A stretch of 64,000 nucleotides of DNA, from NCBI GenBank assembly GCA_036436775.1, contig GCA_036436775.1_3676.1. The stretch is one strand, 5' to 3'. Below, in pieces: positions 23,555 to 39,134 of the stretch (its first letter is position 1; the number at the start of each line of letters is the position of its first letter). The position numbers and the translations under genes were made by a program. Source of the DNA: a phage. Below the pieces are notes generated by a model. It saw only the letters and a program-made list of their open reading frames with translations. It searched no databases and had not been told where the DNA came from.

Positions 23555-24172
23555 GTTGCCTTATTGTTACATATAAAATAATTGTATTGTTAATTATTTC
23601 TTATCTTTCTCTTAGTCATCTAATGATTCCAGTCAGTATAGTAATGTACAGTAAACATTAGACGACTAAAGATTTATATGCTTATAATAACTTACAGTGA
23701 CAATTTCGGACTGTTTACGAAAAATGTTGACACCTGAGCTGATTTATGTTATGCAGTTTACACGAATAATTATTTTATGCAGGTATTGACTATTCCGTTA
23801 TTCTATGGTCGGAATAAATACTTAGCAGACTATAGAATGGTGACGCTACGTGAATTCTGGAATTTAGTGGCTATAGTTATACCCGATTTTTCACGTAGAA
23901 CACGCTTTTGTGGTTATGTAAGTGTATGACTTATAAAGATTTTTAGTTGTTGACAAGACACTGAAGATATGCATCAGGTTAAATTTTGTGCAATAGCGGC
24001 ATTACGTGCAATTTTGGAAGGAAAAACGTGTAAAAATGGCCCTGCTACCACACAATGAAAGATTATGCAATAGCTATTTTACATGTATATTTGTACAGTG
24101 TGTGGGATTGATGGCTAGTCAATTATTCCACTTGCAGGCTGGGCCGTTTGTGGTAGGAGAAATACAGACAAA

Positions 24173-24207
24173 AAGAAAGGGGCCTTTTAAAGCCCCTGAT
24201 AGTTTAG
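24173..24207 (-). terminator. Rho-independent terminator ending the - strand small-gene island
   Basis: On - strand AGGGGC-TTTAAAA-GGCCCCT followed by TTCTTTTTGTCTG. Confidence 0.65.
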
Positions 24208-24215
24208 TTAAGAAA

Positions 24216-24635
24216 TTATAATGATTCGTATATTTGATAGATTCGATTTGCCAGGTCATTACGATAGCGGAATTTTTCATCACGCTTGATCATCAGATCT
24301 TTGAAGCCATATTCTTTAAGCACTTCATTAACTTTATAGCGGCATACCTTCATATTATCTTGCGCGTCACCGATAAATTTGTTGCTATGATGCATGGCTT
24401 TGATCTCTTCCTCCAGAGCCAGGGCAACTACGCGGACCGGATCAAGCTGATATGCGGTAACATCAATGCGGCATTGTAAACGGCTTTTAACGTCTGCCAC
24501 CGGATATACTGCAACCTCTTCCCCGTCAACATTCACAATAACCAGTTTACCATCAATTTCAAAACCTTTTGCGGCTGGGCCGTGACAAAAAGCGTTATCA
24601 AAGCTGTATGCGGGATTGTTAGATTTAATATTCAT
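24216..24635 (-). CDS. Hypothetical protein
   Basis: 139-aa ORF; upstream promoter and AGAGG RBS. Confidence 0.65.
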   Translation of the reverse strand: MNIKSNNPAYSFDNAFCHGPAAKGFEIDGKLVIVNVDGEEVAVYPVADVKSRLQCRIDVTAYQLDPVRVVALALEEEIKAMHHSNKFIGDAQDNMKVCRYKVNEVLKEYGFKDLMIKRDEKFRYRNDLANRIYQIYESL

Positions 24636-24682
24636 GGTGTTTACCTCTTAGATAATTTTCTTACAACTTCCTTCTGAAAAAG

Positions 24683-24711
24683 AATATAGCAAAACTGCCG
24701 ATCCTTGTCAA
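24683..24711 (-). promoter_or_regulatory. Sigma70-like promoter TTGACA-N17-TATATT (- strand)
   Basis: Hexamers read on reverse complement. Confidence 0.55.
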
Positions 24712-24773
24712 TAAGGATAGCATTATTTTTCAGAATCAAGGGGCTTTCGCCCCTGGTTGTATGGCTTGCTGTA

Positions 24774-25037
24774 TTACTTGTTATTCATCCAGTATTCCCA
24801 ACTTGCCTGATATTCTGCTTCATCACGGCGGATCTCTTCTTGCTCGGCAAGGCGGATCTCTTCTTCCAGGTATCCCAAGATATCGCCCTTTTTAGTCTGG
24901 CGTAACATCCAGTCGTCCTTTTTGCGGGTGAAAATTTTGTAAGCTTTTTCACAAACTTCTTTTTTGCTGCCTTTTTGAACTTCAAGGATACGGTAAGCCA
25001 TATGTTGAACTACTTTAAGCTGATCGATGCGTTTCAT
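24774..25037 (-). CDS. Hypothetical protein
   Basis: 87-aa ORF; RBS AGAGAGGAAAACATT. Confidence 0.6.
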   Translation of the reverse strand: MKRIDQLKVVQHMAYRILEVQKGSKKEVCEKAYKIFTRKKDDWMLRQTKKGDILGYLEEEIRLAEQEEIRRDEAEYQASWEYWMNNK

Positions 25038-25097
25038 AATGTTTTCCTCTCTATGTGGTCTTGATTAGTGGGCCTTTCGGCCCGTGTCATTATCTTA

Positions 25098-25370
25098 TTA
25101 CTTACGGCGGCAGAATTCAAGCGTTTTTAATTGATAATCTTCTTCGGCCTGGAGAACAACCGCCTCGATCATTTGGTTGGCGTTATCGAATCCGTATCCT
25201 CTGGCGAACTCATCAGCACCGCCTTTATGGTTGTATTCTGCGTTCATCGCTTCCACAAAATGGAATTCAAGATTATTGAGGTAAGGGCTTGATGTTCCGT
25301 CCTCTTTTTCGATGAGATCCCAAATAGCATTAAAACGTGATTCGACTTCTTGATTAATCCAGCTTGACAT
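25098..25370 (-). CDS. Hypothetical acidic protein
   Basis: 90-aa ORF; RBS AGAGAGGAAAACATC. Confidence 0.6.
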   Translation of the reverse strand: MSSWINQEVESRFNAIWDLIEKEDGTSSPYLNNLEFHFVEAMNAEYNHKGGADEFARGYGFDNANQMIEAVVLQAEEDYQLKTLEFCRRK

Positions 25371-25589
25371 GATGTTTTCCTCTCTTCTGGTTGTTGTGTT
25401 GGCACTTTTGCCCCTTCAAGATAATGTTACCCCACCCCCCTGGCAGATGTCAACGGTTTTTATAGTTCCTATATGACAGGCAGGTCCGGTGGTTGTCTCC
25501 CCCTGTTCCCAAGTGCCGCCCGTTTAATAAGAATAGCAAAAGGGGCCGAACAAGTCAACCCCCAAAATAAGTACCAAAACACTTTTTAT

Positions 25590-25901
25590 TTATACGGTCC
25601 GATCATTGGCCTTTGTCCAGGACCTGGCGATCCGTTTCCCGGTCACCTGGAACGGAGACTGCATTGTGTGTAAGGAGTCCAGCGTAAGGGAGGACCGTTT
25701 ACGGCGTATCTTCAGGATCGCTAACGTATTGTCCATCTCACGGCCAGGCCCTAGGCGGTATGGTGTGCCTCCAGCGTTAAGGTTGATGATCTCATGTATT
25801 GAGATCCGGCGTTGTTTTGCTTCCGCATCTTTGAAGATAGCCAGCGGGGGAGCTATGCGTTGCCGATACCAATCTAAAACGGTTGGCGTAATAGCGATCA
25901 T
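25590..25901 (-). CDS. Hypothetical protein
   Basis: 103-aa ORF with AGGGGG RBS; C-terminal extent uncertain. Confidence 0.4.
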   Translation of the reverse strand: MIAITPTVLDWYRQRIAPPLAIFKDAEAKQRRISIHEIINLNAGGTPYRLGPGREMDNTLAILKIRRKRSSLTLDSLHTMQSPFQVTGKRIARSWTKANDRTV

Positions 25902-26089
25902 ATTTTACCCCCTATGTAGTCAGGTCGGTTTTTCTCTGTCATGCGCTTAAGCAATTCTTGCATATGGCTGATAGCTTGTAGCGTGTCTTCTTCCAGGCTT
26001 GAATCTACATAATCAGGATCGTCTATGACCTTTCTATGATTATGATAACGCAGTACCGCCAATACCTTTCTAACTTGTTCAGTATTCAT
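25898..26089 (-). CDS. Hypothetical protein
   Basis: 63-aa ORF with AAGGGAGATG RBS. Confidence 0.55.
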   Translation of the reverse strand: MNTEQVRKVLAVLRYHNHRKVIDDPDYVDSSLEEDTLQAISHMQELLKRMTEKNRPDYIGGKI

Positions 26090-26105
26090 TTTACATCTCC
26101 CTTAC

Positions 26106-26396
26106 TTATTGTTGGCGGTTTACGTAAGCTTTACCGTTTACCGTCATCGGCAAATCTTCCAGGTCTGGATCTTCCTTAAGGTCGCGAGCAAGTTCACCGC
26201 ACCGGATACCCTCGAATCCGTAGTACTCTGTTGTGCCGTCCTTAAAAGTTTTAGCGGCAAGGCATAAGCGATAAGTAACCCCGATTCGATTGACGGCATG
26301 AATATCCGTTAGATTAACCTCTTTTGCCAGCTCTTTAGCCATTACAGGCGCATTAAGTCCAACAACCAGGGCAACTACTGCGATCATCTTTTTCAT
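26106..26396 (-). CDS. Secreted/periplasmic small protein (signal peptide)
   Basis: 96-aa ORF; N-terminus MKKMIAVVALVVGLNAPVMA resembles a Sec signal peptide. Confidence 0.6.
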   Translation of the reverse strand: MKKMIAVVALVVGLNAPVMAKELAKEVNLTDIHAVNRIGVTYRLCLAAKTFKDGTTEYYGFEGIRCGELARDLKEDPDLEDLPMTVNGKAYVNRQQ

Positions 26397-26487
26397 TGTG
26401 TCTAGCCTCTTTCTGCTACGTTTAAGGCGGCGGTAACCGCCTGTTTATGCTTTGTTGGTTAATTTTCGGGTATCGGTATAAATTAAA

Positions 26488-26703
26488 CTATGCTGTACGC
26501 TCAACTATAACAACGGTTTGAGGAATCTCACCTTCCACCACTAGCAAGGCCTTTTTCTGCGTGATGGATATCTTTACCCGTTGTAGCGTGGCGGTGAAGT
26601 CTTTCATTTCGTCACGTGGTGTTTTAGTGCAATGCCAGATCTCAGGCTTACCTATTTGCAAGCCGCGTAAAAATTCTGTTTTCCCTGTTTTGTTAGTGAT
26701 CAT
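26488..26703 (-). CDS. Hypothetical protein
   Basis: ORF; start moved to ATG with AAGGTGGAG RBS. Confidence 0.5.
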   Translation of the reverse strand: MITNKTGKTEFLRGLQIGKPEIWHCTKTPRDEMKDFTATLQRVKISITQKKALLVVEGEIPQTVVIVERTA

Positions 26704-26713
26704 TTGCTCCACC

Positions 26714-26818
26714 TTAACCGATACCGTTGGAAGATAGGATCATGTTAGCCAGAGTCGCAACCACTCCAACCGATAACACCAGGCCCACTATTACAACCGT
26801 GAAAATTTTCTCTAACAT
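26714..26818 (-). CDS. Small hydrophobic peptide (34 aa)
   Basis: ATG with GAGGGT RBS; single TM helix; not in ORF track. Confidence 0.4.
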   Translation of the reverse strand: MLEKIFTVVIVGLVLSVGVVATLANMILSSNGIG

Positions 26819-26860
26819 GATTCTACCCTCATTGATGGGCGTTACTGCCCCGCTTATGGT

Positions 26861-27097
26861 TTATTGATTGATGTTATAATGAAAGTTATTTTCTTCAGTA
26901 GCTTTTAAAATAAAAGCCGTGATCGCTTTCGTGTCTACTTGTTCGAACGTATCAGAATAGCACCAATAATAATCATCCCCTACTTTCGGCGGGTAAACCT
27001 GGACAAGGAGATCGCCACTTGGTTGATCTATAATCTCAACATGCAAGCCGGATGATTCAGCGGTTTTAACGGCGGTTAATACTGTTGCAATACTCAT
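26861..27097 (-). CDS. Hypothetical protein
   Basis: 78-aa ORF with AAAGGAAAAG RBS. Confidence 0.55.
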   Translation of the reverse strand: MSIATVLTAVKTAESSGLHVEIIDQPSGDLLVQVYPPKVGDDYYWCYSDTFEQVDTKAITAFILKATEENNFHYNINQ

Positions 27098-27177
27098 AAT
27101 CTTTTCCTTTCCGATGTGGGGGCGTTGCCTTATTGCCCCGCCCTACGAAATACATTCTATCAGATAACAAATTATCG

Positions 27178-27324
27178 TTAAGATTTATTTTTTACTTCCC
27201 AAACGGAAAATTCACTACCTATCGGGAGCATTCTTTTAATCTTGTTTGCTGCCGCTACCAGATCCACGGCTTGCACTGTAATAATATAGCCAATTGTCGA
27301 GGCTGTTGCGTTGAAAGTTTTCAT
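27178..27324 (-). CDS. Hypothetical small protein (48 aa)
   Basis: Start moved to ATG with AGAGGATAAT RBS; promoter TTGACA-N17-TAAGAT at 27362-27390. Confidence 0.5.
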   Translation of the reverse strand: MKTFNATASTIGYIITVQAVDLVAAANKIKRMLPIGSEFSVWEVKNKS

Positions 27325-27396
27325 TATATTATCCTCTAATCTAGGCCGCCCTACGTGATACATCTTACACTATTTGAAAATGTTGTCAAACTATTT

Positions 27397-27576
27397 TAAC
27401 GATAATCATCATATGCTTTATTTACCTGGCGAATATAACATTCAAAAGCCAGATCAATAGATTCATATTCACGGATATATTCACCATAGGAAACCACGTA
27501 CATCTTTATAGCTTCCTCATATGCTAGGAGAATAGAATCTAACCCTACGATCTCAGTCTTTGCAATAATAGCCATG
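27397..27576 (-). CDS. Hypothetical small protein (59 aa)
   Basis: ATG with AAGAGGATAAAAATC RBS; not in ORF track. Confidence 0.5.
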
Positions 27577-27650
27577 ATTTTTATCCTCTTTGTGGTTGGT
27601 GGGGCTTGTTGCCCCCTTTGATTTATATATTACAGTCTTATATGGTCATG

Positions 27651-27884
27651 TCAACTATTTTCAAAAAATTTTTCTGCTGTGATATTCTTCCCGGTGGGGT
27701 TAGCTACTTTTAAAATTTTATCATGCACTGGACGCCCAAAAGAATAAGATCCGTATGCAGTAAACCAATAATCGCCGTCAGGTTGTACTATTACCGCCGC
27801 ATATGGTACGCCTTTTTCGTTTTTGCTGACAAAATAGATCACATTGCCATTAATAGCCTCAGCGCGTTTAATTTGTTCCATCAT
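27651..27884 (-). CDS. Hypothetical protein
   Basis: 77-aa ORF with AGAGAGG RBS; GC hairpin in 5'UTR. Confidence 0.6.
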   Translation of the reverse strand: MMEQIKRAEAINGNVIYFVSKNEKGVPYAAVIVQPDGDYWFTAYGSYSFGRPVHDKILKVANPTGKNITAEKFFENS

Positions 27885-27938
27885 GATGATTTACCTCTCT
27901 TTATTTTCATAATTGGGGCCTTTTCGGCCCCGCCAGGT

Positions 27939-28223
27939 TTATTTATTGATAGCGTGCAGCGGGAAAGGTACGCCAGGTTGATAAATAACTTTTACAACCT
28001 CATCCGGGCAAAAGTAGTTGCAGAATTCACCCTGGTAGGCTTCTTCTTCTTTCAATTCGTCATCAACATACTCAAAAAAGTAGTCAACACTTGGATAATC
28101 TTGACCGGAGTTATAATCAACCATAGTGAGGACCAGTTCAAGATCATTGCGGATGATATGCATACCAGCTTTTAAATACTTCGCTTCCATTTTTACTACA
28201 TCGCCAGCGGTAACAATAGCCAT
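27939..28223 (-). CDS. Hypothetical acidic protein
   Basis: 94-aa ORF with TAGGAG RBS. Confidence 0.6.
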   Translation of the reverse strand: MAIVTAGDVVKMEAKYLKAGMHIIRNDLELVLTMVDYNSGQDYPSVDYFFEYVDDELKEEEAYQGEFCNYFCPDEVVKVIYQPGVPFPLHAINK

Positions 28224-28351
28224 GATTTTAACTCCTATCTATCTGGTTAATGATTGGGGGCCTCCCCCTCGACAACTCTTATTATCCATATTGTCGGGAA
28301 TGATGCAAGTACTTCTTTAAAAATTTTTTAAGCGCCCCGTATGCCGTTGTA

Positions 28352-28390
28352 ACGCCAAAATAATAAAGGCCATGCAACCGCATGGCCTTT
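28352..28390 (-). terminator. Rho-independent terminator (- strand)
   Basis: On - strand GGCCATGC-GGTT-GCATGGCC followed by TTTATTATTTTGG. Confidence 0.6.
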
Positions 28391-28448
28391 ATGTGATTAT
28401 ATTGCTGCAGGCCCTGCTAGGGGCCTTATTTTGCACCATTTGCCGGAA

Positions 28449-28757
28449 TTATTCAGAGAAAACATCGTTCACAATAGCGATCACAATGCCGCCCACCTTG
28501 TCACGGTCAACAATGCACAAATCACCATAAATCATGTGGTAGTCTGGATGATCTTTCACGGAATAGTCAATGAGTGTTTTCTTATCGTCCAGCTTCGTAA
28601 CTTCCATTCTCATAACGATATGAGAATCATCAAAGGCATTATTCCGAAAAGTCATAGCCTGACCGCCAGGGCACCCGGTGATCTCCACTTCCACACCATC
28701 TACAATCTGACCATCAAAGAAATAAAGATTATTAGCCTGGATAAACATGTCTATCAC
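28449..28757 (-). CDS. Hypothetical protein
   Basis: 102-aa ORF with AAGGAG RBS. Confidence 0.6.
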   Translation of the reverse strand: MIDMFIQANNLYFFDGQIVDGVEVEITGCPGGQAMTFRNNAFDDSHIVMRMEVTKLDDKKTLIDYSVKDHPDYHMIYGDLCIVDRDKVGGIVIAIVNDVFSE

Positions 28758-28794
28758 TCCTTGTTAACTGCGTGGTATTTTAACAGGGTTTAAA

Positions 28795-28839
28795 TTTACT
28801 TTATTGATGGCCCTGGAGTCAAGGCCATCTAAAAATAAA
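28795..28839. repeat. 45-bp exact repeat, copy 1 (TTTACTTTATTGATGGCCCTGGAGTCAAGGCCATCTAAAAATAAA)
   Basis: Identical to copies at 32521 and 33141; starts 2 nt after a - strand stop codon; contains palindrome GATGGCC...GGCCATC with TTGACT in the loop. Confidence 0.9.
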
Positions 28840-28841
28840 TT

Positions 28842-29042
28842 TTACAGGCCTACAATCTCTTTGATTCGTTTAACCGCTGCCTCAGCGCCTTGGGGGTAAA
28901 AATTATGGTAACCAATCACGCGAGTGATACTAATCGCCGTTTGATGATCTTCATAATCGCCCTTGAAGATTTCTTGACCATCGACCAGAACAGCCAGTTT
29001 TTCATCTTTTTTAAAATTGATAACGCGAATATTCTTGCTCAT
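28842..29042 (-). CDS. Hypothetical protein
   Basis: 66-aa ORF with GAAGAGGAGAAAG RBS. Confidence 0.6.
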   Translation of the reverse strand: MSKNIRVINFKKDEKLAVLVDGQEIFKGDYEDHQTAISITRVIGYHNFYPQGAEAAVKRIKEIVGL

Positions 29043-29144
29043 TTTCTTTCTCCTCTTCAGGCTTTTGTTTGTGTGGTGGGGATGTTTCCCCGTTGATTGT
29101 TATTATCCATATTGCGGACCAGATTGCAACACCCTGGAAGAAAA

Positions 29145-29180
29145 ATTTTTTGAAAAAGATAAGCCCCCATGATTGGGGGC
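29145..29180 (-). terminator. Rho-independent terminator (- strand)
   Basis: On - strand GCCCCCA-ATCA-TGGGGGC followed by TTATCTTTTTC. Confidence 0.55.
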
Positions 29181-29185
29181 CGTTC

Positions 29186-29305
29186 TTAGTTACTTACAGC
29201 GATAAAGTACATCCCTACGCCTAACAATATTTCAAGGGCGATGATCTCCAGCCATACCATAACCCGGCGCACCTTATCGGTGCTGGGCTTATCCTTGGTT
29301 GTCAT
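29186..29305 (-). CDS. Small membrane peptide (39 aa)
   Basis: ATG with GGGGAGACG RBS; TM helix; not in ORF track. Confidence 0.4.
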   Translation of the reverse strand: MTTKDKPSTDKVRRVMVWLEIIALEILLGVGMYFIAVSN

Positions 29306-29341
29306 CGTCTCCCCCTTTCCTTCTGGTAGTAGTGACGTGGT

Positions 29342-29548
29342 TTACAATGGCCCCCCAGGAGTACCATCACCACGCACATCACAAGAAAAATTATCTCTGT
29401 CGTTGTTCGATCCATTGTTATAAAATTCCTCAAGATCAGGCCTGAAAATAAAGCGTTCGTTATTGAATCCGTCACGCCAAGCGGCTGGCTTCAAATCTTC
29501 ACTAAAGGGATTAATTAACGTGGCATTATTTAAACGGTTGGCCCACAT
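29342..29548 (-). CDS. Hypothetical protein
   Basis: Start moved to ATG with GAGAGGAA RBS. Confidence 0.45.
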   Translation of the reverse strand: MWANRLNNATLINPFSEDLKPAAWRDGFNNERFIFRPDLEEFYNNGSNNDRDNFSCDVRGDGTPGGPL

Positions 29549-29900
29549 ATTTTCTATTCCTCTCAAATAAGCGATCCGCCTCAGTTAAACATATCTCATG
29601 GGCTTGATCTCTGGTTTTAGCTTCATCAAAAACTTGTTGCGCCAGGCTGCAGCGCAAGGAGACCGGAAGATCACTATAATAGGCGTTAACAAAAGTTTGA
29701 GCGTCATACAGGTCGGAAAATACTTTACCCTTATTATTATTATTATCCTTGTCAACAATTGCAAGGATAACTAGTACAATGGTTGCAACCACTCCCAGGA
29801 AAATAGATATAACAAACCATAGAAAAGCGGATCTACCTATTTTGCCAGCTATCCAGGCGTTGAACAAGGCAACTACTACAGCCAAAATAATAAATTCCAT
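29526..29900 (-). CDS. Membrane protein (2 predicted TM helices)
   Basis: Start moved to ATG with AAAGAGGTACATAGA RBS. Confidence 0.6.
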   Translation of the reverse strand: MEFIILAVVVALFNAWIAGKIGRSAFLWFVISIFLGVVATIVLVILAIVDKDNNNNKGKVFSDLYDAQTFVNAYYSDLPVSLRCSLAQQVFDEAKTRDQAHEICLTEADRLFERNRKYVGQPFK

Positions 29901-29964
29901 TCTATGTACCTCTTTTGCAGTTCTGTTTAACAATAAGGCGGCAAATATGCCGCCTGTTACCTGA

Positions 29965-30345
29965 TTAAAAATTATCGCCGTAAATCTTTCCGCTTTCTGC
30001 CCACACTACCACGCGGGGCATGTTATCCCATACATCTTGTTTTAGATTTAACGCGTGCAATTCTTCGGTGGTGCTCATACCAGGCACGGGCTGATTGTAT
30101 ACTGCAAAACGACCACCTGCATAATCATAGGCCAGAGTTAAATCACACTGGATCATCTTTTTGATCATGGCGTTGAGCATAGCGTTAGCCGCATACTGGT
30201 CACGTTTTAAAGGCAACTCTTTGATTAGTTTGCGATAGTTTTCAATGTGATCACACACTGTTTCACGTGGAAGATCTTTCATATCCTCGCGAAAGGTAAC
30301 CAGGTTAAACATAACGGTGTCAATAGCTTTAGTAGTGTTTTTCAT
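29965..30345 (-). CDS. Hypothetical protein
   Basis: Start moved to ATG with AAAGAGGAAAACATC RBS; promoter TTGCAA-N16-TATATT and hairpin in UTR. Confidence 0.6.
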   Translation of the reverse strand: MKNTTKAIDTVMFNLVTFREDMKDLPRETVCDHIENYRKLIKELPLKRDQYAANAMLNAMIKKMIQCDLTLAYDYAGGRFAVYNQPVPGMSTTEELHALNLKQDVWDNMPRVVVWAESGKIYGDNF

Positions 30346-30435
30346 GATGTTTTCCTCTTTGTTTTGTGTGGGGGGCAAACGTCTTGCCCCTTGAGTTTTA
30401 ATATAGCAGGTTTTTAGGTTATTGCAACACTTTAT

Positions 30436-31059
30436 TTATGAAAAAGTCATCTCACCATATTCATCGACATCAAACCGCCAATCATTGGCCTCGATAAGGC
30501 CGATCAAGTTTTCAGATGTGAATTGCTCCAAATAGGCCGCTTCCAAGTCTACGTAAACCTTGCGAGATAGTTCACGTACAGTCTCGGTGATCAGCTCTTC
30601 CAGATCTTCCACTTTGTTTTCTTGCTTGGTGGTCAGGTCCAGCCATGTAGTATCGATGTATCCGTTTACAGTGTTTTCGTGACTATATCGGCTGTATGTG
30701 TCACGTTCAACACTTGCGGATAGCTCGCCATCGTGCATTGTGCCGAACAAGTGACGAATTGAGCGGAATTTAGTCAGAGACTTGACTTTACGCAAGAATT
30801 TTTCTAAATCCACGTTTTCAGCACTGATTGACGCGCCGTCACCCTGGCACCAAAAGCCGGACCAATGTACATCTGTATCTTCAAGCCCGTACTCTGGAAA
30901 AACATATTCTTTATAGTATTCAATTACACTTTCTGCGAAAAAGTTATCGCCGCTGTTTTCTTCTCTTTCGCGGACCATTTCAACGGCTTTTTCTTTTTGT
31001 TCATCAGTCAGCACGTCGAAAGATAAATTGTAACCTGCGGTAATGTTAACGGTAGTCAT
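30436..31059 (-). CDS. Hypothetical protein (207 aa)
   Basis: ORF with AGGAGAAAATATC RBS; own promoter and 5'UTR hairpin GGCGGGAA-AAA-TTCCCGCC. Confidence 0.65.
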   Translation of the reverse strand: MTTVNITAGYNLSFDVLTDEQKEKAVEMVREREENSGDNFFAESVIEYYKEYVFPEYGLEDTDVHWSGFWCQGDGASISAENVDLEKFLRKVKSLTKFRSIRHLFGTMHDGELSASVERDTYSRYSHENTVNGYIDTTWLDLTTKQENKVEDLEELITETVRELSRKVYVDLEAAYLEQFTSENLIGLIEANDWRFDVDEYGEMTFS

Positions 31060-31116
31060 GATATTTTCTCCTATTTTCTTCGGTGGTGGCGGGAATTTTT
31101 CCCGCCTATGTGGTTA

Positions 31117-31144
31117 AGTATACTTGTCTAATCTTACTTGTCAA
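31117..31144 (-). promoter_or_regulatory. Sigma70-like promoter TTGACA-N16-TATACT (- strand)
   Basis: Hexamers read on reverse complement. Confidence 0.55.
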
Positions 31145-31394
31145 CACTATTTTTTAAATTGTTGTAGCGTAAAACGTTCAAGATATCTTTGATATCATCA
31201 GCACGGCGGCAATTTTTAAACGCTACCAATTGCCCCAGGATTTTAATCACCGGGCGGCCTTGCCAGTGCCCTTGAAGAAAGCGCGCCTTAACCTTATCGG
31301 TGGAACTATCACGCCACCAAACGGCTTTATTATTGCAGTAGTAAAAATTATTTAGGACAACATCGACTTTATCAAAATTTTTCAATTTACGCAT
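31134..31394 (-). CDS. Hypothetical basic protein
   Basis: 86-aa ORF with AAGGGG RBS; promoter TTGACA-N18-TATACT at 31430-31459. Confidence 0.55.
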   Translation of the reverse strand: MRKLKNFDKVDVVLNNFYYCNNKAVWWRDSSTDKVKARFLQGHWQGRPVIKILGQLVAFKNCRRADDIKDILNVLRYNNLKNSVDK

Positions 31395-31616
31395 GGCGTT
31401 TACCCCTTACTTCTCGCTTTGATGTGATTAGTATATCTAGAGTATTTTTAGATGTCAACAATATTTTTAACGCTTTAAAACAGCCTTTGACGATGTTTTC
31501 AGGTTAAGAAAGGGGATTGCATGGGTAGGGGGCCTTTAGGGCGTTGTGGGGCCAACCAGGGGCGCTATTCGTAGGATAGAAATAAAAAGCCCCGCACGAT
31601 GGCGGGGCGTTGGTTG

Positions 31617-31814
31617 TTAGTTGCCTTTGTGGCGGTATCGTTCCGCCTGCCGTTCACGTTCCAAAAGGAGGCCCGGCAATTTACGATCATAATGATTCCG
31701 CCAGATCTTCCCAAATCTTTTTGGCTTATTCAGTTTATTGTTACGCTGGCGGCGTTCCGGCAGCTCTTCGGAATCATGAGATCGCTTTACAATCTTCTCA
31801 AAATTAATCTTCAT
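31617..31814 (-). CDS. Hypothetical basic protein
   Basis: Start moved to ATG with AAGGGGGGAATAT RBS. Confidence 0.5.
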   Translation of the reverse strand: MKINFEKIVKRSHDSEELPERRQRNNKLNKPKRFGKIWRNHYDRKLPGLLLERERQAERYRHKGN

Positions 31815-32157
31815 ATATTCCCCCCTTGCTAACTTCAATATTGGCCTGAATAGCCCTGATACGTCGCTTTATAGCTTCCTGATTTGTGTGATCGTATCCC
31901 CAAAAGTCTACAATTTTTGCGCCACCAGCCTCCAGGCGGTATAGTGTTTCCTGCATCTTGTAAGCTGGGATCGGTCGCGGTGTTACTTGGTCACCTTCTT
32001 TATTTTTATACTTTACAATATAATCTTCGTTATCGTTGAATATCCAAAATGGATATTCTGCAAGGGCGGTACTTCCTCTTTCCTTTTTATCCTGGATCTT
32101 GTTTACAATTAAAGCCGTAGCAATAGCGCCAATAATAAAACTAGCCCCGCTGATCAT
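31804..32157 (-). CDS. Membrane-anchored hypothetical protein
   Basis: Start moved to ATG with AAAGGAGAAAG RBS; N-terminal TM helix. Confidence 0.55.
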   Translation of the reverse strand: MISGASFIIGAIATALIVNKIQDKKERGSTALAEYPFWIFNDNEDYIVKYKNKEGDQVTPRPIPAYKMQETLYRLEAGGAKIVDFWGYDHTNQEAIKRRIRAIQANIEVSKGGIYED

Positions 32158-32234
32158 GTTACTTTCTCCTTTCATGGTGTTAGTAAATTATCTTTACAGA
32201 TGTGGCCCTGCAGCCAGGACCACCGAAAAAATAA

Positions 32235-32480
32235 CTATTTCACAATGCCTACAAAACAGATCCCGCCTTCACCTATATAAGCAATGTCGGTAATTTTATA
32301 ATTTGTTAAGATCCGCGTATTCAGCTCGTTAATAAAATCGGTCATCGCGTTGGTGTAGTTGTCTTCCATGTCTAGGGAATAATCCCAGGTGTAAACCTTT
32401 TTACGTCCGAAGCCTTTTACCATGATCCGGGCGCTTTTGGTGTTGGTGGGCGCATAGTATTTGGTAATTAGTGCTGCCAT
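32235..32480 (-). CDS. Hypothetical protein
   Basis: 81-aa ORF with TGAGGAG RBS. Confidence 0.6.
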   Translation of the reverse strand: MAALITKYYAPTNTKSARIMVKGFGRKKVYTWDYSLDMEDNYTNAMTDFINELNTRILTNYKITDIAYIGEGGICFVGIVK

Positions 32481-32520
32481 GGTTTTAACTCCTCATTAGT
32501 TCAGTGTTAACAGTGTAAAG

Positions 32521-32565
32521 TTTACTTTATTGATGGCCCTGGAGTCAAGGCCATCTAAAAATAAA
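32521..32565. repeat. 45-bp exact repeat, copy 2
   Basis: Identical to 28795-28839; starts 2 nt after the stop of the 32567-32908 gene. Confidence 0.9.
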
Positions 32566-32566
32566 T

Positions 32567-32908
32567 TTATTCGTTTTCTTCCAGTTCTGAAAGCTCTTCT
32601 TTCACTTCCTCAAGCTCTGTCTGCAATTCCTGGTATTCTTCATCGTCCTCAATATCCAGGCTGTCGATGTAGTCGCTAAATCCGCAGCGGTAAGCGATAG
32701 GATCTAGCTCCTTGAGGATACGCGACGGAAGAAAAGAAATGTTTCCGATCATAATTTCGCCGTAGATCTCGTCTAACCATTCATCATAGTTTTCGTCGTA
32801 CTTGTCCTCGTCGATTTCAAAGTTATCGATCTTATTCTCAAGGTCTGCGATCTGTTTTTTCAGCGCGGCGATCTGCATGGCTTTTTCTGCGGCGGTCATA
32901 GTAGTCAT
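32567..32908 (-). CDS. Highly acidic coiled-coil-like protein
   Basis: 113-aa ORF, strongly D/E-rich, AAAGGAGAAAACAC RBS. Confidence 0.6.
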   Translation of the reverse strand: MTTMTAAEKAMQIAALKKQIADLENKIDNFEIDEDKYDENYDEWLDEIYGEIMIGNISFLPSRILKELDPIAYRCGFSDYIDSLDIEDDEEYQELQTELEEVKEELSELEENE

Positions 32909-32957
32909 GGTGTTTTCTCCTTTTGTGTGTTCTGGGAAGTTTTCCCGTTGATGTGCT

Positions 32958-32986
32958 TAGTATATCGATCTAAGTTAGCTTGTCAA
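32958..32986 (-). promoter_or_regulatory. Sigma70-like promoter TTGACA-N17-TATACT (- strand)
   Basis: Hexamers read on reverse complement; followed by hairpin CGGGAA-AACT-TCCCAG. Confidence 0.55.
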
Positions 32987-33106
32987 TTAAAAATTTAAGA
33001 AAAATTTTGCAAAACTGTTAGCGCTACTCATCAACATTTGCGCCAGGATGTACCCAATGATGCAAACGATGATGGTTACCTTTGTGTGCTGGCGTGTAGT
33101 GCTCAT
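32987..33106 (-). CDS. Small membrane peptide (39 aa)
   Basis: ATG with AAAAAGGAGG RBS; TM helix; not in ORF track. Confidence 0.45.
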   Translation of the reverse strand: MSTTRQHTKVTIIVCIIGYILAQMLMSSANSFAKFFLNF

Positions 33107-33140
33107 CTTCAAGCCTCCTTTTTAGCTTAACTGGGATTAG

Positions 33141-33185
33141 TTTACTTTATTGATGGCCCTGGAGTCAAGGCCATCTAAAAATAAA
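33141..33185. repeat. 45-bp exact repeat, copy 3
   Basis: Identical to 28795-28839; starts 2 nt after the stop of the 33187-33582 gene. Confidence 0.9.
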
Positions 33186-33186
33186 C

Positions 33187-33582
33187 TTAGTAAGTTTTCA
33201 GTACTTTCCCGTCCAGTCTGTCAAGCTGGATCTCGATAGCTGCAGAAAACCTATTATAAACCACATCGCCCATGGAGTCCAGCCAATCTATGACGTTATA
33301 CACCTGCTCTTTGTTCTTGCAAGTCCGGATCCGTTTCATTACGTAAGACGGATCAATATTAGTGCTCTCGTTGTTGTGGTCATGCGCCTGGCCTGCTGCA
33401 TTAGTTATAGATTTTACAACCACCTGAAAGGGCTTTAAGGTGCCTTTTGCGTTCATCTCACGCGCTTTTGCGGCGCGGTTGTTATATGTTACACAACGGC
33501 GGCAAATGTTGACTAAATGCATATCAATAATTTTTTCATCGTTTGCCAGTTCGTTCATGATGCGGCGTACGTTCTTATTCAT
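33187..33582 (-). CDS. Hypothetical protein
   Basis: 131-aa ORF with AAAGGAAAAAGATC RBS; 5'UTR hairpin GGCGGGAA-TGT-TTCCCGCC. Confidence 0.6.
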   Translation of the reverse strand: MNKNVRRIMNELANDEKIIDMHLVNICRRCVTYNNRAAKAREMNAKGTLKPFQVVVKSITNAAGQAHDHNNESTNIDPSYVMKRIRTCKNKEQVYNVIDWLDSMGDVVYNRFSAAIEIQLDRLDGKVLKTY

Positions 33583-33630
33583 GATCTTTTTCCTTTGTGT
33601 TGGCGGGAAACATTCCCGCCTTTTGTGCCT

Positions 33631-33659
33631 AGTTTACTTTAATTTTGCAGCGTGTCAAT
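33631..33659 (-). promoter_or_regulatory. Sigma70-like promoter TTGACA-N17-TAAACT (- strand)
   Basis: Hexamers read on reverse complement. Confidence 0.5.
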
Positions 33660-33668
33660 AATTTTTTT

Positions 33669-34067
33669 TTATTCGTGGGCGCATGTCACAATGTGCTTTT
33701 TATACCCCAGGTGGGCAGCAAGTGCTGACAAAAACTCATCCTCATAGATCCAGCCGTTGGCAGTGATCCCCATAGCATTTAACGCGCTTTCAAGTGCTGC
33801 ATTGGCCTTATCATAACCGTGACCGCTCGCCTTGCCACCAGTATAACCGTACTTGTTGTTCTTGCTGTCGTGCATCCAAAAGACGCAATAATGAGTGTTA
33901 CCGCTGGAGGCGGCATAATACCGGATCTCGGCTACTTCGTGTAAATTATTATCATCGTCTAGGCCAACCAGATTATAAGCCTTGTAGAATCCCCGCTCAC
34001 GGCGGCAGTTCTTAACATCAGAAAAAGAGAAGTCAGCATTATCAAAATTAAAGGTTGTAGTTTTCAT
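33669..34067 (-). CDS. Hypothetical protein
   Basis: 132-aa ORF with AAGAGGATAAAATC RBS. Confidence 0.6.
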   Translation of the reverse strand: MKTTTFNFDNADFSFSDVKNCRRERGFYKAYNLVGLDDDNNLHEVAEIRYYAASSGNTHYCVFWMHDSKNNKYGYTGGKASGHGYDKANAALESALNAMGITANGWIYEDEFLSALAAHLGYKKHIVTCAHE

Positions 34068-34131
34068 GATTTTATCCTCTTAGTGTCTTTTGTGATTTAA
34101 GTATATTTTGTGTCAGACTACATGTCAATAT

Positions 34132-34329
34132 TTATTTTTTATTAAACCAGTGGTTGATCTGACCTTTTGTCAGGGCGCAACGGTTAAGCTGTTGCAGGGT
34201 ATAGCTATGACCGCGACGAAATTTATAAAGGCCTTGCCCGTTGTTGATGGTTACATCCACCAGGCAAACCACTTGATCGGTGACCACCTGGCGAGTGTTG
34301 CGACGTACTTTGATTCCGTATGCGTTCAT
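34132..34329 (-). CDS. Hypothetical basic protein
   Basis: 65-aa ORF with AAAGAGGATAAAAAATC RBS; promoter TTGACA-N16-TATTCT at 34382-34409. Confidence 0.55.
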   Translation of the reverse strand: MNAYGIKVRRNTRQVVTDQVVCLVDVTINNGQGLYKFRRGHSYTLQQLNRCALTKGQINHWFNKK

Positions 34330-34412
34330 GATTTTTTATCCTCTTTACTAGTTAGTGTGGTGTTGTTCACCTTGTAGGATAAGAATAGCAGGACTCCCCC
34401 GGTTGTCAACAA

Positions 34413-34591
34413 TTATTTTAAATTATTTTTATGATAGAATCCACCTGCCGCCGCCCCTACCAGGTTAACCATCATTTTTTCGTACTCTTCTTTATGTTCC
34501 AACGCTCCCGCCATAGCCTTTTCAACCAGGGCGATAGCCTCAGCGTCATTAATAGCTACATTTTCCAGGGGGGATCATATTACCTTTCATT
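34413..34591 (-). pseudogene. Small gene interrupted by frameshift at a C6/G6 homopolymer
   Basis: Strong RBS GAAGAGGAGG + ATG; frame breaks after 13 codons at CCCCCC; a 1-nt change would give a continuous ~59-aa ORF. Confidence 0.35.
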
Positions 34592-34748
34592 TTTGTACCT
34601 CCTCTTCAATTGTTACCTATCCTACAGTATAGGCCCACCAGGTTTACAAGCCTTCATTCTCTCCTACCTGGTCAGTTAGGTCCTGCCAGGCTGGCCCACC
34701 AGGTTGCAGCGGTTAGTGCATCAGGTTAGAAAAATTTTTTGAAAAGTG

Positions 34749-35010
34749 TTGACAGCGGCCCCGCCAGGTGGCACAATATACCTATCGAAAGGACGGAAGG
34801 CACCGGTGACGGGGGAGACAACCACCGGGGATGGGCGCTGCATAAAATGAGAACGGTTATCATTATCATTTAAAAGTTTATGCAAAAAATCCTTGCTCTC
34901 TTTGTCCTGTGTGATACTATAATAACAAGCCGGGGCAACAGGGGCCGGGAGACAACCACCGGGCCTGCCCGTTATTCTGCAAACGAGAATGATTATCATT
35001 CAAAATTCTA
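34749..35010 (+). ncRNA. Two tandem promoter-associated structured units (candidate small RNAs)
   Basis: Each unit has GC stem-loop with identical 17-nt core GGGAGACAACCACCGGG (34813-34829, 34946-34962) and downstream GAGAAYGRTTATCATT palindrome; first preceded by TTGACA and AT-rich UP-like stretch. Confidence 0.35.
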
Positions 35011-35079
35011 AATGAGAACTCCTCGCATTTAATAAATTTAATTAGCATGCTAATTACCCTCCGTAACAATTTCCTATAA

Positions 35080-35560
35080 AACAATACACCATAAAATTTC
35101 CATATAGAAATTTTAAAAATCCATTTCTGAAAACGAAAAATCGATTTCGTCCCAAAAAATTTCAGGCCGAGAGCCGGAACGATTCCCAGAAAATCCGATT
35201 CAGAAAACGAAAAACAGATCGAGTACTGAGAAATTTATCGAGAAAAGTTTTCAGAAAATCAGAGCCCTGAAATGAAAAGTAGATCGAGTACCTGGAAATC
35301 CGCACCGTGACTTCAAGATAGTGGTTAGATTGTTACCATAGAAGGTCAAGGGTAAGTGGAGGAAGTTCTAGTAGAGGGATGTTAGCATGTGCGAGAAATC
35401 TGTAATGGTGGCCTGGAATATGGTGCAAACGATAGGATGGGTGATTCAGCTTGTCGCGCCCACTCTGAAAAAAATCCATTTTAGTTTTCGATCTATTTTC
35501 TGATTTTCTAAGAATTTTAAAATATCTGGCCCGGTGAAATATCAAAAGGAGGAAATCCAT
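35080..35560. repeat. AT-rich tandem/inverted repeat region
   Basis: About 40-45-bp units around CAGAAAAYGAAAAA...GATCGAGTAC repeated 3x at 35100-35300; AAATCCATTTT at 35100, 35467, 35549. Confidence 0.6.
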
Positions 35561-35605
35561 TTTAGAAATCCCCCTTACACTTGATATGCCAGGAATTTTC
35601 AAGTA

Positions 35606-35935
35606 TCAGCTGTCTTTGTTTTTAGGTTTGTACATGCGCAGAGGTATGGTCTTTGTAACATTCCATTTCCTCAATCCTTCCCAGCTCCAGTTGTGGGCGT
35701 GGTATCCGGTTATGCATGCACTACTGGAGTGATCGTAAGCATAAGAGAACGCTAAGCGCACTAGGTGAGGCCAGTCCTTCCACGGTTGTGGTCCGTAAGC
35801 TTTTCTCCAACACCGACACAAACTAAATGTCTCAAGAATAGGCAGGATAACAAATCCATACACCGCCACCAGAATAGCCAGCGCAATGATTGTCAGGAAT
35901 ACATACCCTGCAGTTGAAACGATGATCTCCGTCAT
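35606..35935 (-). CDS. Membrane-anchored hypothetical protein
   Basis: 109-aa ORF, N-terminal TM, AAGGGG RBS, ATGA overlap with upstream gene. Confidence 0.6.
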   Translation of the reverse strand: MTEIIVSTAGYVFLTIIALAILVAVYGFVILPILETFSLCRCWRKAYGPQPWKDWPHLVRLAFSYAYDHSSSACITGYHAHNWSWEGLRKWNVTKTIPLRMYKPKNKDS

Positions 35936-36129
35936 TTGTCATCCCCTTTCTTATGAATATAGATGTGTGAGCCTGCCTGTATATAAATTTCTCGACCATC
36001 TTCTGAAAAGATGTGGAATACACGGTCACCTTCATACTCGATACGAGATATCTTCATAATAGTTTTTCCACCTGGAATACGGATCTCGTCACCTACAGCA
36101 ATGTTCCATGCGGATTTAAGCTTAAACAT
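35932..36129 (-). CDS. Hypothetical protein
   Basis: Start moved to ATG with AAAGGAGGGTG RBS. Confidence 0.55.
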   Translation of the reverse strand: MFKLKSAWNIAVGDEIRIPGGKTIMKISRIEYEGDRVFHIFSEDGREIYIQAGSHIYIHKKGDDK

Positions 36130-36367
36130 CAGCACCCTCCTTTGGGAACTTAAACTCTGGCATAGCCATATACGCCACAACAGGGTTGTGATCAAAGTAG
36201 AACTGACCGTTAATTATCCCGGTTTTACTCACATAGTTACCAGATCCTGCAAGAACAACCTCGCAAGCTCCGAAATCTACATTGCCATCCTCATCAGCCA
36301 TGGCTACGATATACTTTCCAAGAGGCATGTTTTTAACGCCGTCTACAAATGTCCACTCTGTGTTCAT
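36122..36367 (-). CDS. Hypothetical protein
   Basis: 81-aa ORF. Confidence 0.55.
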   Translation of the reverse strand: MNTEWTFVDGVKNMPLGKYIVAMADEDGNVDFGACEVVLAGSGNYVSKTGIINGQFYFDHNPVVAYMAMPEFKFPKEGADV

Positions 36368-36376
36368 ACTTTACCC

Positions 36377-36709
36377 TTAAGGTAGCCAGTAAACAATCTC
36401 GCCTTTCAGCTTCATGTCGTTTCCAACATAAATTTCCCAGCCATCCATCTTAGCAACTGTAGGCCCAAAGTCATCAGCACCCCTTACCTCTTTCCAGGCT
36501 CCGTAGTCAGGTTGCCAGATATAGAATCCACCTTCTTTGTCCCATGCTCCGTACACTACGTTTAACAGGTTTCCCATTGCAACAATGGTGGGCCGTGGGA
36601 ATAATACATCTACAGATGCGCCACAATTTCGGGTATCTTTTAAGTTGCAATCCCAAAAGATATCTGCCAGTGTGGCGGCGATAGCTTTACGTCTTTCTAA
36701 TGTTACCAT
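36377..36709 (-). CDS. Hypothetical protein
   Basis: 110-aa ORF. Confidence 0.6.
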   Translation of the reverse strand: MVTLERRKAIAATLADIFWDCNLKDTRNCGASVDVLFPRPTIVAMGNLLNVVYGAWDKEGGFYIWQPDYGAWKEVRGADDFGPTVAKMDGWEIYVGNDMKLKGEIVYWLP

Positions 36710-36718
36710 ATATCATAC

Positions 36719-36910
36719 TCACTTGTTGTTAATAAGTTCTAAAACTTTCTGTCTTACTTTGTCAAGGTCTGTTGATTCAAAAACTGTGCGATATCCCCAA
36801 CTTTGCCCATAGGAGTGACTGCAATCTCCGTAACACCATTGCTCAATTTGATAGTATTCAAGGAACGGGTGCTGCCTGACTATGATACCGTCTCGATTAA
36901 AAATTACCAT
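36719..36910 (-). CDS. Hypothetical protein
   Basis: 63-aa ORF with GAGAGGGATAT RBS. Confidence 0.55.
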   Translation of the reverse strand: MVIFNRDGIIVRQHPFLEYYQIEQWCYGDCSHSYGQSWGYRTVFESTDLDKVRQKVLELINNK

Positions 36911-36941
36911 AATATATCCCTCTCTGCTAGTTTATGTTTGT

Positions 36942-36970
36942 ATTATACACCGCAGTTTTCAGATGTCAAC
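36942..36970 (-). promoter_or_regulatory. Sigma70 consensus-like promoter TTGACA-N17-TATAAT (- strand)
   Basis: Both hexamers perfect on reverse complement. Confidence 0.6.
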
Positions 36971-36973
36971 CTC

Positions 36974-37168
36974 TTACAGATTGCTCCAGTACAATCGGCA
37001 TTTACATTTTGGGCAATGAGGTTCTTTTATGTAATAACCGTCAGTCTTTGGAACACTTTTTGGTGCAGTTTTAACATTGTACCTGGTAAAACATCGGAAG
37101 CAGGTTACCTCTCCGATCTGTTGATCGTTGATCCACTCGCCAGAGTAAAGCTCTTTCTTGTTTCTCAT
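36974..37168 (-). CDS. Small Zn-ribbon-like protein
   Basis: Start moved to ATG with GGGAGAGAATT RBS; CFRC...CPKC Cys pairs. Confidence 0.5.
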   Translation of the reverse strand: MRNKKELYSGEWINDQQIGEVTCFRCFTRYNVKTAPKSVPKTDGYYIKEPHCPKCKCRLYWSNL

Positions 37169-37419
37169 AATTCTCTCCCAAATCCTCTGCAATCTTATAC
37201 CAAAATCTCCAGCCAGAAAGCACACGGGAACACTTTGAGGATTGAATCTTTACTTGGCTCGGAAGTTCTTTTTCCGTATGGCAGGTAGAAATACCCTCCT
37301 GCAGATTCGAATATAGCTCCTTCGGTTGTATCTACCACAGCAAGAATTAAGATTTTAGTCTCCACAGTGCTCTCCTCTCTCAGTTGTTGTGGAAACTATA
37401 TCACCTCAGAAGATGGTCG

Positions 37420-37959
37420 TCAACACTTTTTGTACCCCACCACGATCACATCAATGTCTGTGGTGGCAAGATTAATGACGTCTTCCACGTGTTCCCACTT
37501 TAGACCACCAATACCGCATCCGATTTTAGGAATGTAGAACGGTAATGACATACCTTTGAATACCTCGTTGACTCGCTCAAAGCCTTTCATGATTGAGAAG
37601 TATTCAGCATTTGGCCCTGGGTAGAACTGGGTATACAGGTTGATTCCATATACGACCCTGTTCTTGGCAAAATGCTCCCAACAAGAAAACATGCCCAGCT
37701 TGTCTAGATTACCATAAGCAGTCTCTTTGTCGGCTGCCAGTGCTTGAGGGAACTCACGGGCAATATCTTTCGCTATACCTGCACCCATTGTGTGAAAGCA
37801 GTTACAACCGTGGATCATGTGGCCTGACCCTTTCTTGAAAATGGAGATTAGATCTCCACCTATAGTATCAATAATCACGGTATGCCAGCTCCTCTTCCGC
37901 AATTTCAAAAAACTCAGTCCAGCACTGTGGCATATTGGAGTTACCGAAGTGGCTTTCAT
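37420..37959 (-). CDS. Macro-domain protein (ADP-ribose binding/hydrolase fold)
   Basis: GDL...HGCNCFHTMGAGIAKDIAR and IPKIGCGIGG resemble macro-domain Gly-rich motifs; start uncertain, overlaps upstream gene. Confidence 0.55.
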   Translation of the reverse strand: MKATSVTPICHSAGLSFLKLRKRSWHTVIIDTIGGDLISIFKKGSGHMIHGCNCFHTMGAGIAKDIAREFPQALAADKETAYGNLDKLGMFSCWEHFAKNRVVYGINLYTQFYPGPNAEYFSIMKGFERVNEVFKGMSLPFYIPKIGCGIGGLKWEHVEDVINLATTDIDVIVVGYKKC

Positions 37960-38293: not shown

Positions 38294-38361
38294 CTTAGTT
38301 CTCCGGGTTCAACAGGTGGTGGTGCTACAGGAAGATCATAAAACATGGCTATCACAGTCTC

Positions 38362-39072: not shown

Positions 39073-39134
39073 TTTTCAGATCTCCTTATGCAAAAATGCC
39101 CCACCCTTTCGGGCAGGGCTATGTTAACTAATTG

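Follow-up and report, generated by a model that had tools for sequence, protein, structure and literature searches.

The 64,000-nt stretch analysed here (contig GCA_036436775.1_3676.1 of GenBank assembly GCA_036436775.1), referred to below as the window, belongs to an rV5-like Vequintavirus, being 91-94% identical to many Escherichia coli myophages of ~137 kb. In the early region of this phage, a 45-mer, TTTACTTTATTGATGGCCCTGGAGTCAAGGCCATCTAAAAATAAA, is found at 28795-28839, 32521-32565 and 33141-33185, and these copies are designated E1, E2 and E3. The genes surrounding them all lie on the minus strand, on which the 45-mer reads TTTATTTTTAGATGGCCTTGACTCCAGGGCCATCAATAAAGTAAA in the sense of the mRNA. 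A first-pass annotation of the sequence had reported three identical copies, each starting 2 nt after a stop codon and ~45 nt before the next start. The three copies are borne out: the search of the window returned exactly three exact matches and no fourth one with up to three mismatches, and none was found in 100 dinucleotide shuffles (0 expected by chance). The constant spacing holds for E1, located 2 nt after the stop codon and 46 nt before the next ATG, and fails for the other two copies, for which these distances are 1 and 34 nt (E3) and 1 and 40 nt (E2). The open reading frames (ORFs) on both sides and the other features discussed are collected in Table 1.

Each copy folds on the mRNA strand as a two-tier hairpin made of a lower stem, an internal loop, an upper stem and a tetraloop. 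The lower stem (UUUAUUUU/AAAGUAAA) consists of A-U pairs over 8-11 bp, one U.G included, and in E1 extends into the stop codon of the upstream 66-aa ORF. It is followed by a 2x3 internal loop (UA/AAU) and by a G+C upper stem of 10 bp (GAUGGCCUUG/CAGGGCCAUC), also with one U.G, topped by the tetraloop ACUC. The palindrome of the first-pass annotation is thus present, with a stem of 10 bp (U.G included) and a 4-nt loop instead of the 7-bp stem proposed, and with a lower stem in addition. That annotation was correct in placing TTGACT 18 nt before TAAAYT, and also in stating that the element is not a canonical terminator, as the 3' flank is AAUAAAGUAAA in the mRNA sense and UAAAAAUAAA in the opposite one, and a U tract is missing after both tiers on both strands.

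Table 1. Features of the early region related to the repeated element (positions in the window).
Feature	Position	Strand	Remarks
E3, full two-tier hairpin around the 45-mer 33141-33185	33139..33187	-	between the 131-aa ORF (stop codon) and the 39-aa ORF (ATG); covariance model 81.1 bits
E2, exact 45-mer with two-tier hairpin	32521..32565	-	between the 113-aa ORF (stop codon) and the 81-aa ORF (ATG)
E1, full two-tier hairpin around the 45-mer 28795-28839	28792..28842	-	between the 66-aa ORF (stop codon) and the 99-aa ORF (ATG)
E', diverged fourth member 3' of the 81-aa ORF	32181..32240	-	same two-tier architecture, without TTGAC motif; covariance model 59.6 bits
Predicted RNase III cut in E3, CAUCAAU^AAAG	33148..33149	-	13 nt 3' of the loop; predicted from geometry
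Predicted equivalent cuts in E2 and E1	32528/32529 (E2), 28802/28803 (E1)	-	predicted from geometry
Sigma70-like motif in E3: TTGACT (33168-33163, stem top and loop), N18, TAAACT (33144-33139)	33139..33168	-	9/12
Same sigma70-like motif in E2 and E1	32519-32548 (E2), 28793-28822 (E1, TAAATT)	-	TTGACT-N18-TAAAYT
Hairpin-less promoter-like site TTGACA-N16-TAAACT	33631..33658	-	directly 3' of the 132-aa ORF; UViG L008 has an element copy (L008_1) at the orthologous spot
Strong sigma70 promoter TTGACA-N16-TATACT	32959..32986	-	upstream of the 113-aa ORF; left breakpoint of the KKE7M-shared module
E3-E2 module: 39-aa ORF, promoter, 5' untranslated region (5'-UTR) hairpin, 113-aa ORF	32566..33140	-	absent in at least six records with the E3xE2 junction

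The fold is specific to the mRNA strand, with energies of -21 to -25 kcal/mol and z-scores of -4.8 to -6.4, whereas z is about -2 on the opposite strand because the U.G pairs of the mRNA turn there into C.A mismatches. Likewise, a covariance model built from 28 distinct copies of the element gives ~80 bits on the minus strand versus ~42 bits on the plus strand, and it finds no further family member in the 64 kb beyond E1-E3 and E'. A sliding-window scan for long hairpins by minimum free energy proved far too permissive and was replaced by a strict two-tier descriptor, which matches only E1-E3 in the 64 kb, with 0.15 matches expected per shuffled window. Across the 28 copies, 97.3% of the cells assigned to the stems are paired, against 39-55% in slid controls.

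A distant relative, the uncultivated virus genome (UViG) L008, whose proteins share 32-68% identity with those of the window, carries five diverged copies (L008_1 to L008_5), each directly 3' of a stop codon, two of them behind the orthologues of the 113-aa and 66-aa genes. Once these copies are added, 96.8% of the cells still pair and seven pairs spread over both helices are changed on both sides, a number reached in one of 500 shuffles, while the covariation score is 0.316 compared with at most 0.071 for slid structures. About 12% of the paired cells are G.U and would be A.C mismatches on the other strand, so that the structure fits the mRNA strand alone. Common to all 13 distinct variants are the 2x3 internal loop (U[A/C]/NAU), the three U-A pairs below it and the sequence AUAAAG. 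The element can therefore be regarded, with high confidence, as a selected RNA structure of the coding strand.

The element is found in 121 GenBank phage records with about three copies each, all Vequintavirus but one. In orthologous comparisons, it is 98.3% identical while the flanks are 94.4% (upstream) and 91.0% (downstream) identical, and most differences between copies are located at loop positions 3-4. It is also retained behind orthologous genes whose proteins share 35-56% identity. A degenerate copy occurs in phage Gotham, the E3 of which (L003 5648-5700) no longer has the 3' arm of its upper stem, the spacer being thereby shortened to 13 nt. A first scan of IMG/VR gave four stretches only, and a second one using a pattern of invariant positions gave ~80 loci, most of them an unrelated 48-nt conserved sequence, among which the covariance model saw no true relative. 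In an Rfam scan of 24000-40000, no relevant family was found; at E<=1, there were just two unrelated weak matches elsewhere. Some of the records encountered call for comment. CP057073.1 (137,565 bp), filed as an E. coli plasmid, has three copies of the element and an rV5-like genome size, and is probably a phage genome deposited as a plasmid. Seventeen 'Campylobacter phage' records (MG0656xx, several marked UNVERIFIED) are 91-92% identical to this region of an E. coli Vequintavirus, and the host given in them is questionable.

The explanation that we favour is an intercistronic processing site of the RNase III type joined to a 3'-stabilising hairpin, and we assign it an even chance. An RNA processing site was one of the three options left by the first-pass annotation and, judged by analogy, appears the best supported of them, the element being strand-specific and covarying, with the shape of a T7 RNase III site and a canonical distal box. 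RNase III substrates extend over about two helical turns (~20-22 bp) of quasi-continuous double helix (PMC1540722, PMC6212723), and E offers 8-11 bp of lower stem and 10 bp of upper stem across its 2x3 internal loop. Pertzev and Nicholson described an 11-bp helix from the cut to the tetraloop (PMC1540722). The distal box consists of U-A then U.G under the closing pair, the requirement for U.G being stringent, and the proximal box excludes G-C/C-G at positions pb2 and pb4, with an optimum of G-C at pb1, A-U/U-A at pb2 and A-U at pb3 (PMC1540722). Internal loops restrict the enzyme to one strand, leaving a protective 3' hairpin (PMC1540722).

Read from the top, the pairs of E are G-C, U-A, U.G, C-G, C-G, G-C, G-C, U-A, A-U and G-C, then A.A. 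The distal box of E1-E3 is thus canonical, with U-A and U.G directly beneath the G-C closing pair, and the U.G is kept at this position in L008_1 and L008_2, where it stands outside any TTGAC. In the proximal box, A-U at pb2 and the A.A mismatch at pb4 are allowed pairs. The internal loop falls at the 11-bp measure from cut to loop, with 13 nt on the 3' strand, and the cut is predicted at the positions of Table 1 because the 10 stem nucleotides and AAU of the 3' strand make up the 13 nt expected before the scissile bond.

For comparison with E, the T7 early region was folded around the RNase III cleavage positions presumed for it, which we take to be those of Dunn and Studier and which agree with the 11-bp/13-nt geometry of PMC1540722; the T7 RefSeq record contains no RNase III site features. 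In R0.3, R0.5, R1, R1.1 and R4.7, a lower stem of 5-9 bp is followed by an internal loop of 2-3 x 3, an upper stem of 9-10 bp and a loop of 3-5 nt. These sites are cut at the U of the NAU forming the 3' side of the internal loop, and the 3' side of E is also NAU. E shares with them a 3'-strand distance of 13 nt between loop and lower stem, the U-A/U.G distal box, and an intercistronic location in an early region transcribed by the host polymerase. The hairpins of R0.5, R1 and R4.7 lie within 0-2 nt of the upstream stop codon or overlap it, as E does. R1 even has an internal loop identical to that of E (UA/AAU); the descriptor derived from E is specific, but it recovers R1 alone among the T7 sites. 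The differences are also clear, since E has no sequence homology with the T7 sites, belongs to another phage lineage, possesses a lower stem of nearly pure A-U, is present at just three to four sites per genome and overlaps a sigma70-like promoter; its cleavage is predicted by analogy.

According to this processing model, the element would be the core of a 50-60-nt intercistronic RNA element working on the mRNA of the minus strand. During transcription of the early operon by the host RNA polymerase, it would fold into about two helical turns, the A-U lower stem starting at or inside the upstream stop codon. Host RNase III would then bind this helix and make a single cut (CAUCAAU^AAAG) at the internal loop, on its 3' side, as in the early R-sites of T7. 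Such a cut would provide the upstream cistron with a protective 3' hairpin end and detach the downstream cistron; we infer both this cleavage and the stabilising effect. In the exact-copy subtype, the same DNA would hold a sigma70-like promoter, with the -35 in the loop and the -10 in the 3' arm, which may restart transcription. Promoter-gene-hairpin units could thereby act as self-contained modules, and homologous recombination between identical copies could homogenise these copies and delete, insert or export modules.

Several points weigh against RNase III processing. The pairs at pb1 (U-A) and pb3 (G-C) depart from the R1.1 optimum, T7 R1 having likewise C-G at pb3. The second position of the distal box is C-G and not U.G in E', L008_4 and L008_5. 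There are four family members per genome, and the window contains no other two-tier hairpins. Phage C7 has an E1 (L011 10357-10419) without the 3' lower arm, in a record marked UNVERIFIED; this copy and the degenerate E3 of Gotham imply that single copies can decay. TTGACA is kept in the two enlarged loops of L008_2 and L008_3, so that conservation is probably partly at the DNA level. The literature on rV5-like phages yielded no data on transcript ends, rnc-dependence or in-vitro cleavage, and nothing was found either on rV5/Vequintavirus transcriptomics or on RNase III in Vequintavirinae. Finally, the analogous stem-loops of PeSL (promoter-early stem-loop) cassettes were measured as transcription attenuators (PMC2839356, PMC4122927).

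These PeSL cassettes, known from the T4-type phages RB49/phi1, PST and nt-1 and with measured promoter and attenuator activities (PMC2839356, PMC4122927), suggest another explanation, possible though improbable, that dispenses with RNase III. The hairpin would attenuate or terminate upstream read-through, and an embedded sigma70 promoter (UP-like T-tract, TTGACT, TAAAYT) would restart transcription. The layout of the PeSLs is matched by that of E, with a stop codon, an AT-rich tract, sigma70-like -35/-10 boxes overlapped by a stem-loop, then Shine-Dalgarno sequence and ATG. Both also have G-T pairs in their stems, stand among small ORFans and bound indels or replacements. E differs from the PeSLs in its phage family, the window being a Vequintavirus and not a T4-type phage, and shows no sequence similarity to them. 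Compared with them, the promoter-like part of E is weak and absent in half of the family, and its hairpin is a two-tier helix of ~20 bp with RNase III hallmarks whereas the PeSL stem is polyG/polyC and terminator-like.

The sequences themselves bear on the promoter part of this composite in both directions. The loops of L008_2 and L008_3 are enlarged to 9 and 16 nt, and each contains a perfect TTGACA located 17 nt before TAACCT or TAAACT, with promoter scores of 9/12 and 10/12, respectively. AAAGTAAACTA (AAAGTAAACT) is common to the 3' end of E and to the hairpin-less site at 33658-33631, which is followed by the usual 5'-UTR hairpin; AAAGTAAAYT occurs four times in the window, namely in the three copies of E and at this site. 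In the loop, AC at positions 1-2 (-35 positions 4-5) hardly changes, in contrast to the variable positions 3-4, and PhagePromoter called promoters at two element copies in phage Gotham. On the other hand, TTGACT-N18-TAAAYT scores just 9/12 with its 18-nt spacer, which is chance level in the region (53 sites found versus 33.8 expected). No match of this promoter type is found in E', L008_1, L008_4 and L008_5, and seven of the 13 distinct variants are devoid of a promoter-like match whereas all 13 keep the hairpin. As the motif is missing from E' and from three of the five L008 copies, the promoter cannot be the shared function. Moreover, covariation between a 5' T-rich and a 3' A-rich arm is unexpected for an UP element and a -10 box, and the attenuating half of the composite is at odds with the lack of a U tract after either tier. 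No other promoter-like site was found for the genes downstream of E'; these genes are therefore reached by read-through, and the hairpin cannot be an efficient terminator.

The promoter with embedded operator suggested by the first-pass annotation is consequently reduced to its first half and to one subtype. A composite promoter is plausible in the exact copies, with what looks like independent sequence support from the TTGACA of L008_2 and L008_3 and from the 33658-33631 site, and we infer promoter activity in this sense. The operator is not supported because the compensatory substitutions and G.U pairs of the stems are of the RNA type and do not reflect conservation of protein half-sites. 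Strong sigma70 promoters are otherwise seen on the minus strand of the early region at 34128-34100, 33658-33602, 32986-32935, 31144-31085, 30427-30369 and 29129-29074. Those at 33658, 32986, 31144, 30427 and 29129 have a short G+C 5'-UTR hairpin a few bases after the -10, e.g., GGCGGGAAUGUUUCCCGCC, and these hairpins are probably 5' mRNA stabilisers.

The hairpin might also be a passive mRNA stabiliser blocking 3'-to-5' exonucleases once the mRNA has been cleaved elsewhere or is decaying after read-through, like REP or T4 intercistronic hairpins, with no specific endonucleolytic cut. It is indeed stable, G+C-rich, strand-specific and located directly 3' of coding regions in operons. However, an exonuclease would already be stopped by the upper stem alone, and this explanation, which we consider rather unlikely, does not account for the covarying A-U lower stem, the fixed 2x3 loop, the invariant AUAAAG and the U-A/U.G box. 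REP/BIME sequences of E. coli are imperfect palindromes found 3' of stop codons inside operons, where they may stabilise upstream mRNA. E resembles them in its palindromic character, in its position just 3' of stop codons in operons and as a potential stabiliser of upstream mRNA, but it is two-tier and phage-specific. A host repeat of the REP/ERIC type was rejected, as none of 5,426 complete E. coli genomes contains the element and 20,395 E. coli records gave no match.

A further explanation is an RNA binding site for a phage protein (antiterminator, translational or decay regulator) that would read the internal loop and the AUAAAG. The conservation of the internal loop, of the three U-A pairs and of AUAAAG goes beyond pairing needs, and just four sites are present, all in one early region, as could be expected for such a site. 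These conserved features nevertheless coincide with known determinants of RNase III, and no candidate RNA-binding protein is found among the flanking genes, all without assigned function, which makes this explanation quite improbable.

Exchange of genes at the element is directly visible in relatives. In UViG L006 and in the phages magaca, ime, A147, ECP26 and phiWec189, i.e., in at least five GenBank genomes and one UViG, a single element joins the 131-aa gene to the 81-aa gene, and the 39-aa gene, the promoter and the 113-aa gene are missing (E3xE2 junction). In all other genomes, the match to a query made of this junction breaks at most 2 nt from the edges of the 45-mer. A second case is provided by KKE7M, a phi92-like Justusliebigvirus of another subfamily, in which a 468-nt patch is 95.7% identical to the window. 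This patch starts at window position 32987, 1 nt ahead of the -35 hexamer in the promoter of the 113-aa gene, and its right-hand breakpoint is the last base of the 45-mer of E2, the flanks being unrelated on both sides. The promoter followed by its 5'-UTR hairpin is also part of this shared module. The early regions of both phages are otherwise unrelated, with the exception of further single-gene patches shared with KKE7M (L009) at window positions 27394-27587, 26490-26843 and 29979-30312 (92%, 90% and 75% identity), which indicates a gene-by-gene mosaic exchange between two phage subfamilies.

Gene content was compared between relatives as the first-pass annotation had recommended, and the flanking cassettes do vary, with breakpoints at the element. 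Its third option, a recombination hotspot that shuffles gene cassettes, thus receives direct support from the E3xE2 junctions and from the KKE7M breakpoint at the last base of the element. Near E1, relatives also differ by a ~350-bp indel (an extra gene after the 99-aa ORF), with no copy of the element at its ends. The unit common to KKE7M and the window recalls the morons of lambdoid phages, promoter-gene-terminator units found between late genes of a temperate phage. Both are self-contained (here promoter, 5'-UTR hairpin, single gene and 3' hairpin) and moved between unrelated backbones, but E is not a canonical terminator and the unit belongs to the early region of a lytic phage.

E1, E2 and E3 are identical in the window although their counterparts at the E2 and E1 positions of L008 are strongly divergent from one another, and rare loop alleles co-occur at different element positions in one genome; taken together, these observations imply gene conversion among copies. 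The same observations, with the imperfect palindrome and the deletion and horizontal-transfer breakpoints located exactly at the element, could be expected from an element acting primarily as DNA. It would be either the operator of a dimeric repressor or a cruciform/hairpin target of a dedicated recombinase or nuclease, for which recombination would be primary. We consider this very unlikely. The G.U pairs would be A.C mismatches on the other strand, and the stems compensate within one genome (L008_5 versus L008_1 to L008_4), which is incompatible with fixed half-sites. Furthermore, the breakpoints require no more than homologous recombination over 45-63 identical bases, and no dedicated enzyme is indicated. 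An ordinary intrinsic terminator, as which the record of phage Murica marks E1 and E' over 45 nt, is the least credible explanation and was rejected despite the G+C-rich hairpin, as there is no U tract on either strand, the terminator scan did not pick up the element, the terminator annotation of phage EdH4 passes over all copies and conserved downstream genes lack promoters of their own.

Beyond the processing reading, a bolder though unlikely proposal is that the element was selected as an enzyme-free module linker combining an RNase III site and a promoter, the identity of its copies being kept by gene conversion. Single early genes would be excised, perhaps as mini-circles, and re-inserted, even from Vequintavirinae to Stephanstirmvirinae, leaving the expression of their neighbours undisturbed. 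If so, such a linker would be a functional analogue of the integron attachment site, built from RNA-processing and transcription signals.

The closest precedents of the element are the R-sites of T7 and the PeSL cassettes of T4-type phages, and E is a variant of these known kinds. No earlier description of E itself was found in the literature on Vequintavirus, by its sequence or otherwise, and neither the rV5 genome paper nor its supplements list it. Public annotations are inconsistent, as one and the same sequence is labelled as a terminator in Murica (two copies), as a promoter in Gotham (two copies) and not at all in EdH4 or in the rV5 paper; these labels can now be corrected. Phages of the rV5 type are widely used therapeutic and biocontrol candidates, and their gene regulation is, to our knowledge, essentially unmapped. 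The element yields testable predictions for the cutting and stabilisation of early polycistronic mRNA, down to single-nucleotide cut sites. By analogy, it points to an origin of T7-style RNase III processing in an unrelated myovirus. The PeSL idea of a regulatory motif doubling as a recombination linker is extended by it beyond T4-type phages, and it documents the transfer of a promoter-gene-hairpin module between phage subfamilies.

Among the flanking proteins, a functional clue is offered solely by the product of the gene that closes the operon of E2 and E' (31617-31814, minus strand), which is T7 gp1.1-like (Pfam PF08200, E 9.5e-11, above the curated cut-off). Other features of the window include three direct repeats of ~48 nt at 35113-35160, 35187-35234 and 35252-35299, spaced by 65-74 nt and 69-75% alike, in a segment with tiny ORFs only that has an iteron-like look. 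A very stable long hairpin is present at 23368-23429 (-30.5 kcal/mol on the plus strand and -23.6 on the minus strand) and may be a bidirectional terminator. Lastly, a 27-nt repeat, AAAA(T/A)GCCCCACCCTTTCGGGCAGGGC, forming a terminator-type hairpin occurs at 39093-39119 and 49516-49542, its two copies being 96% identical and 10 kb apart.

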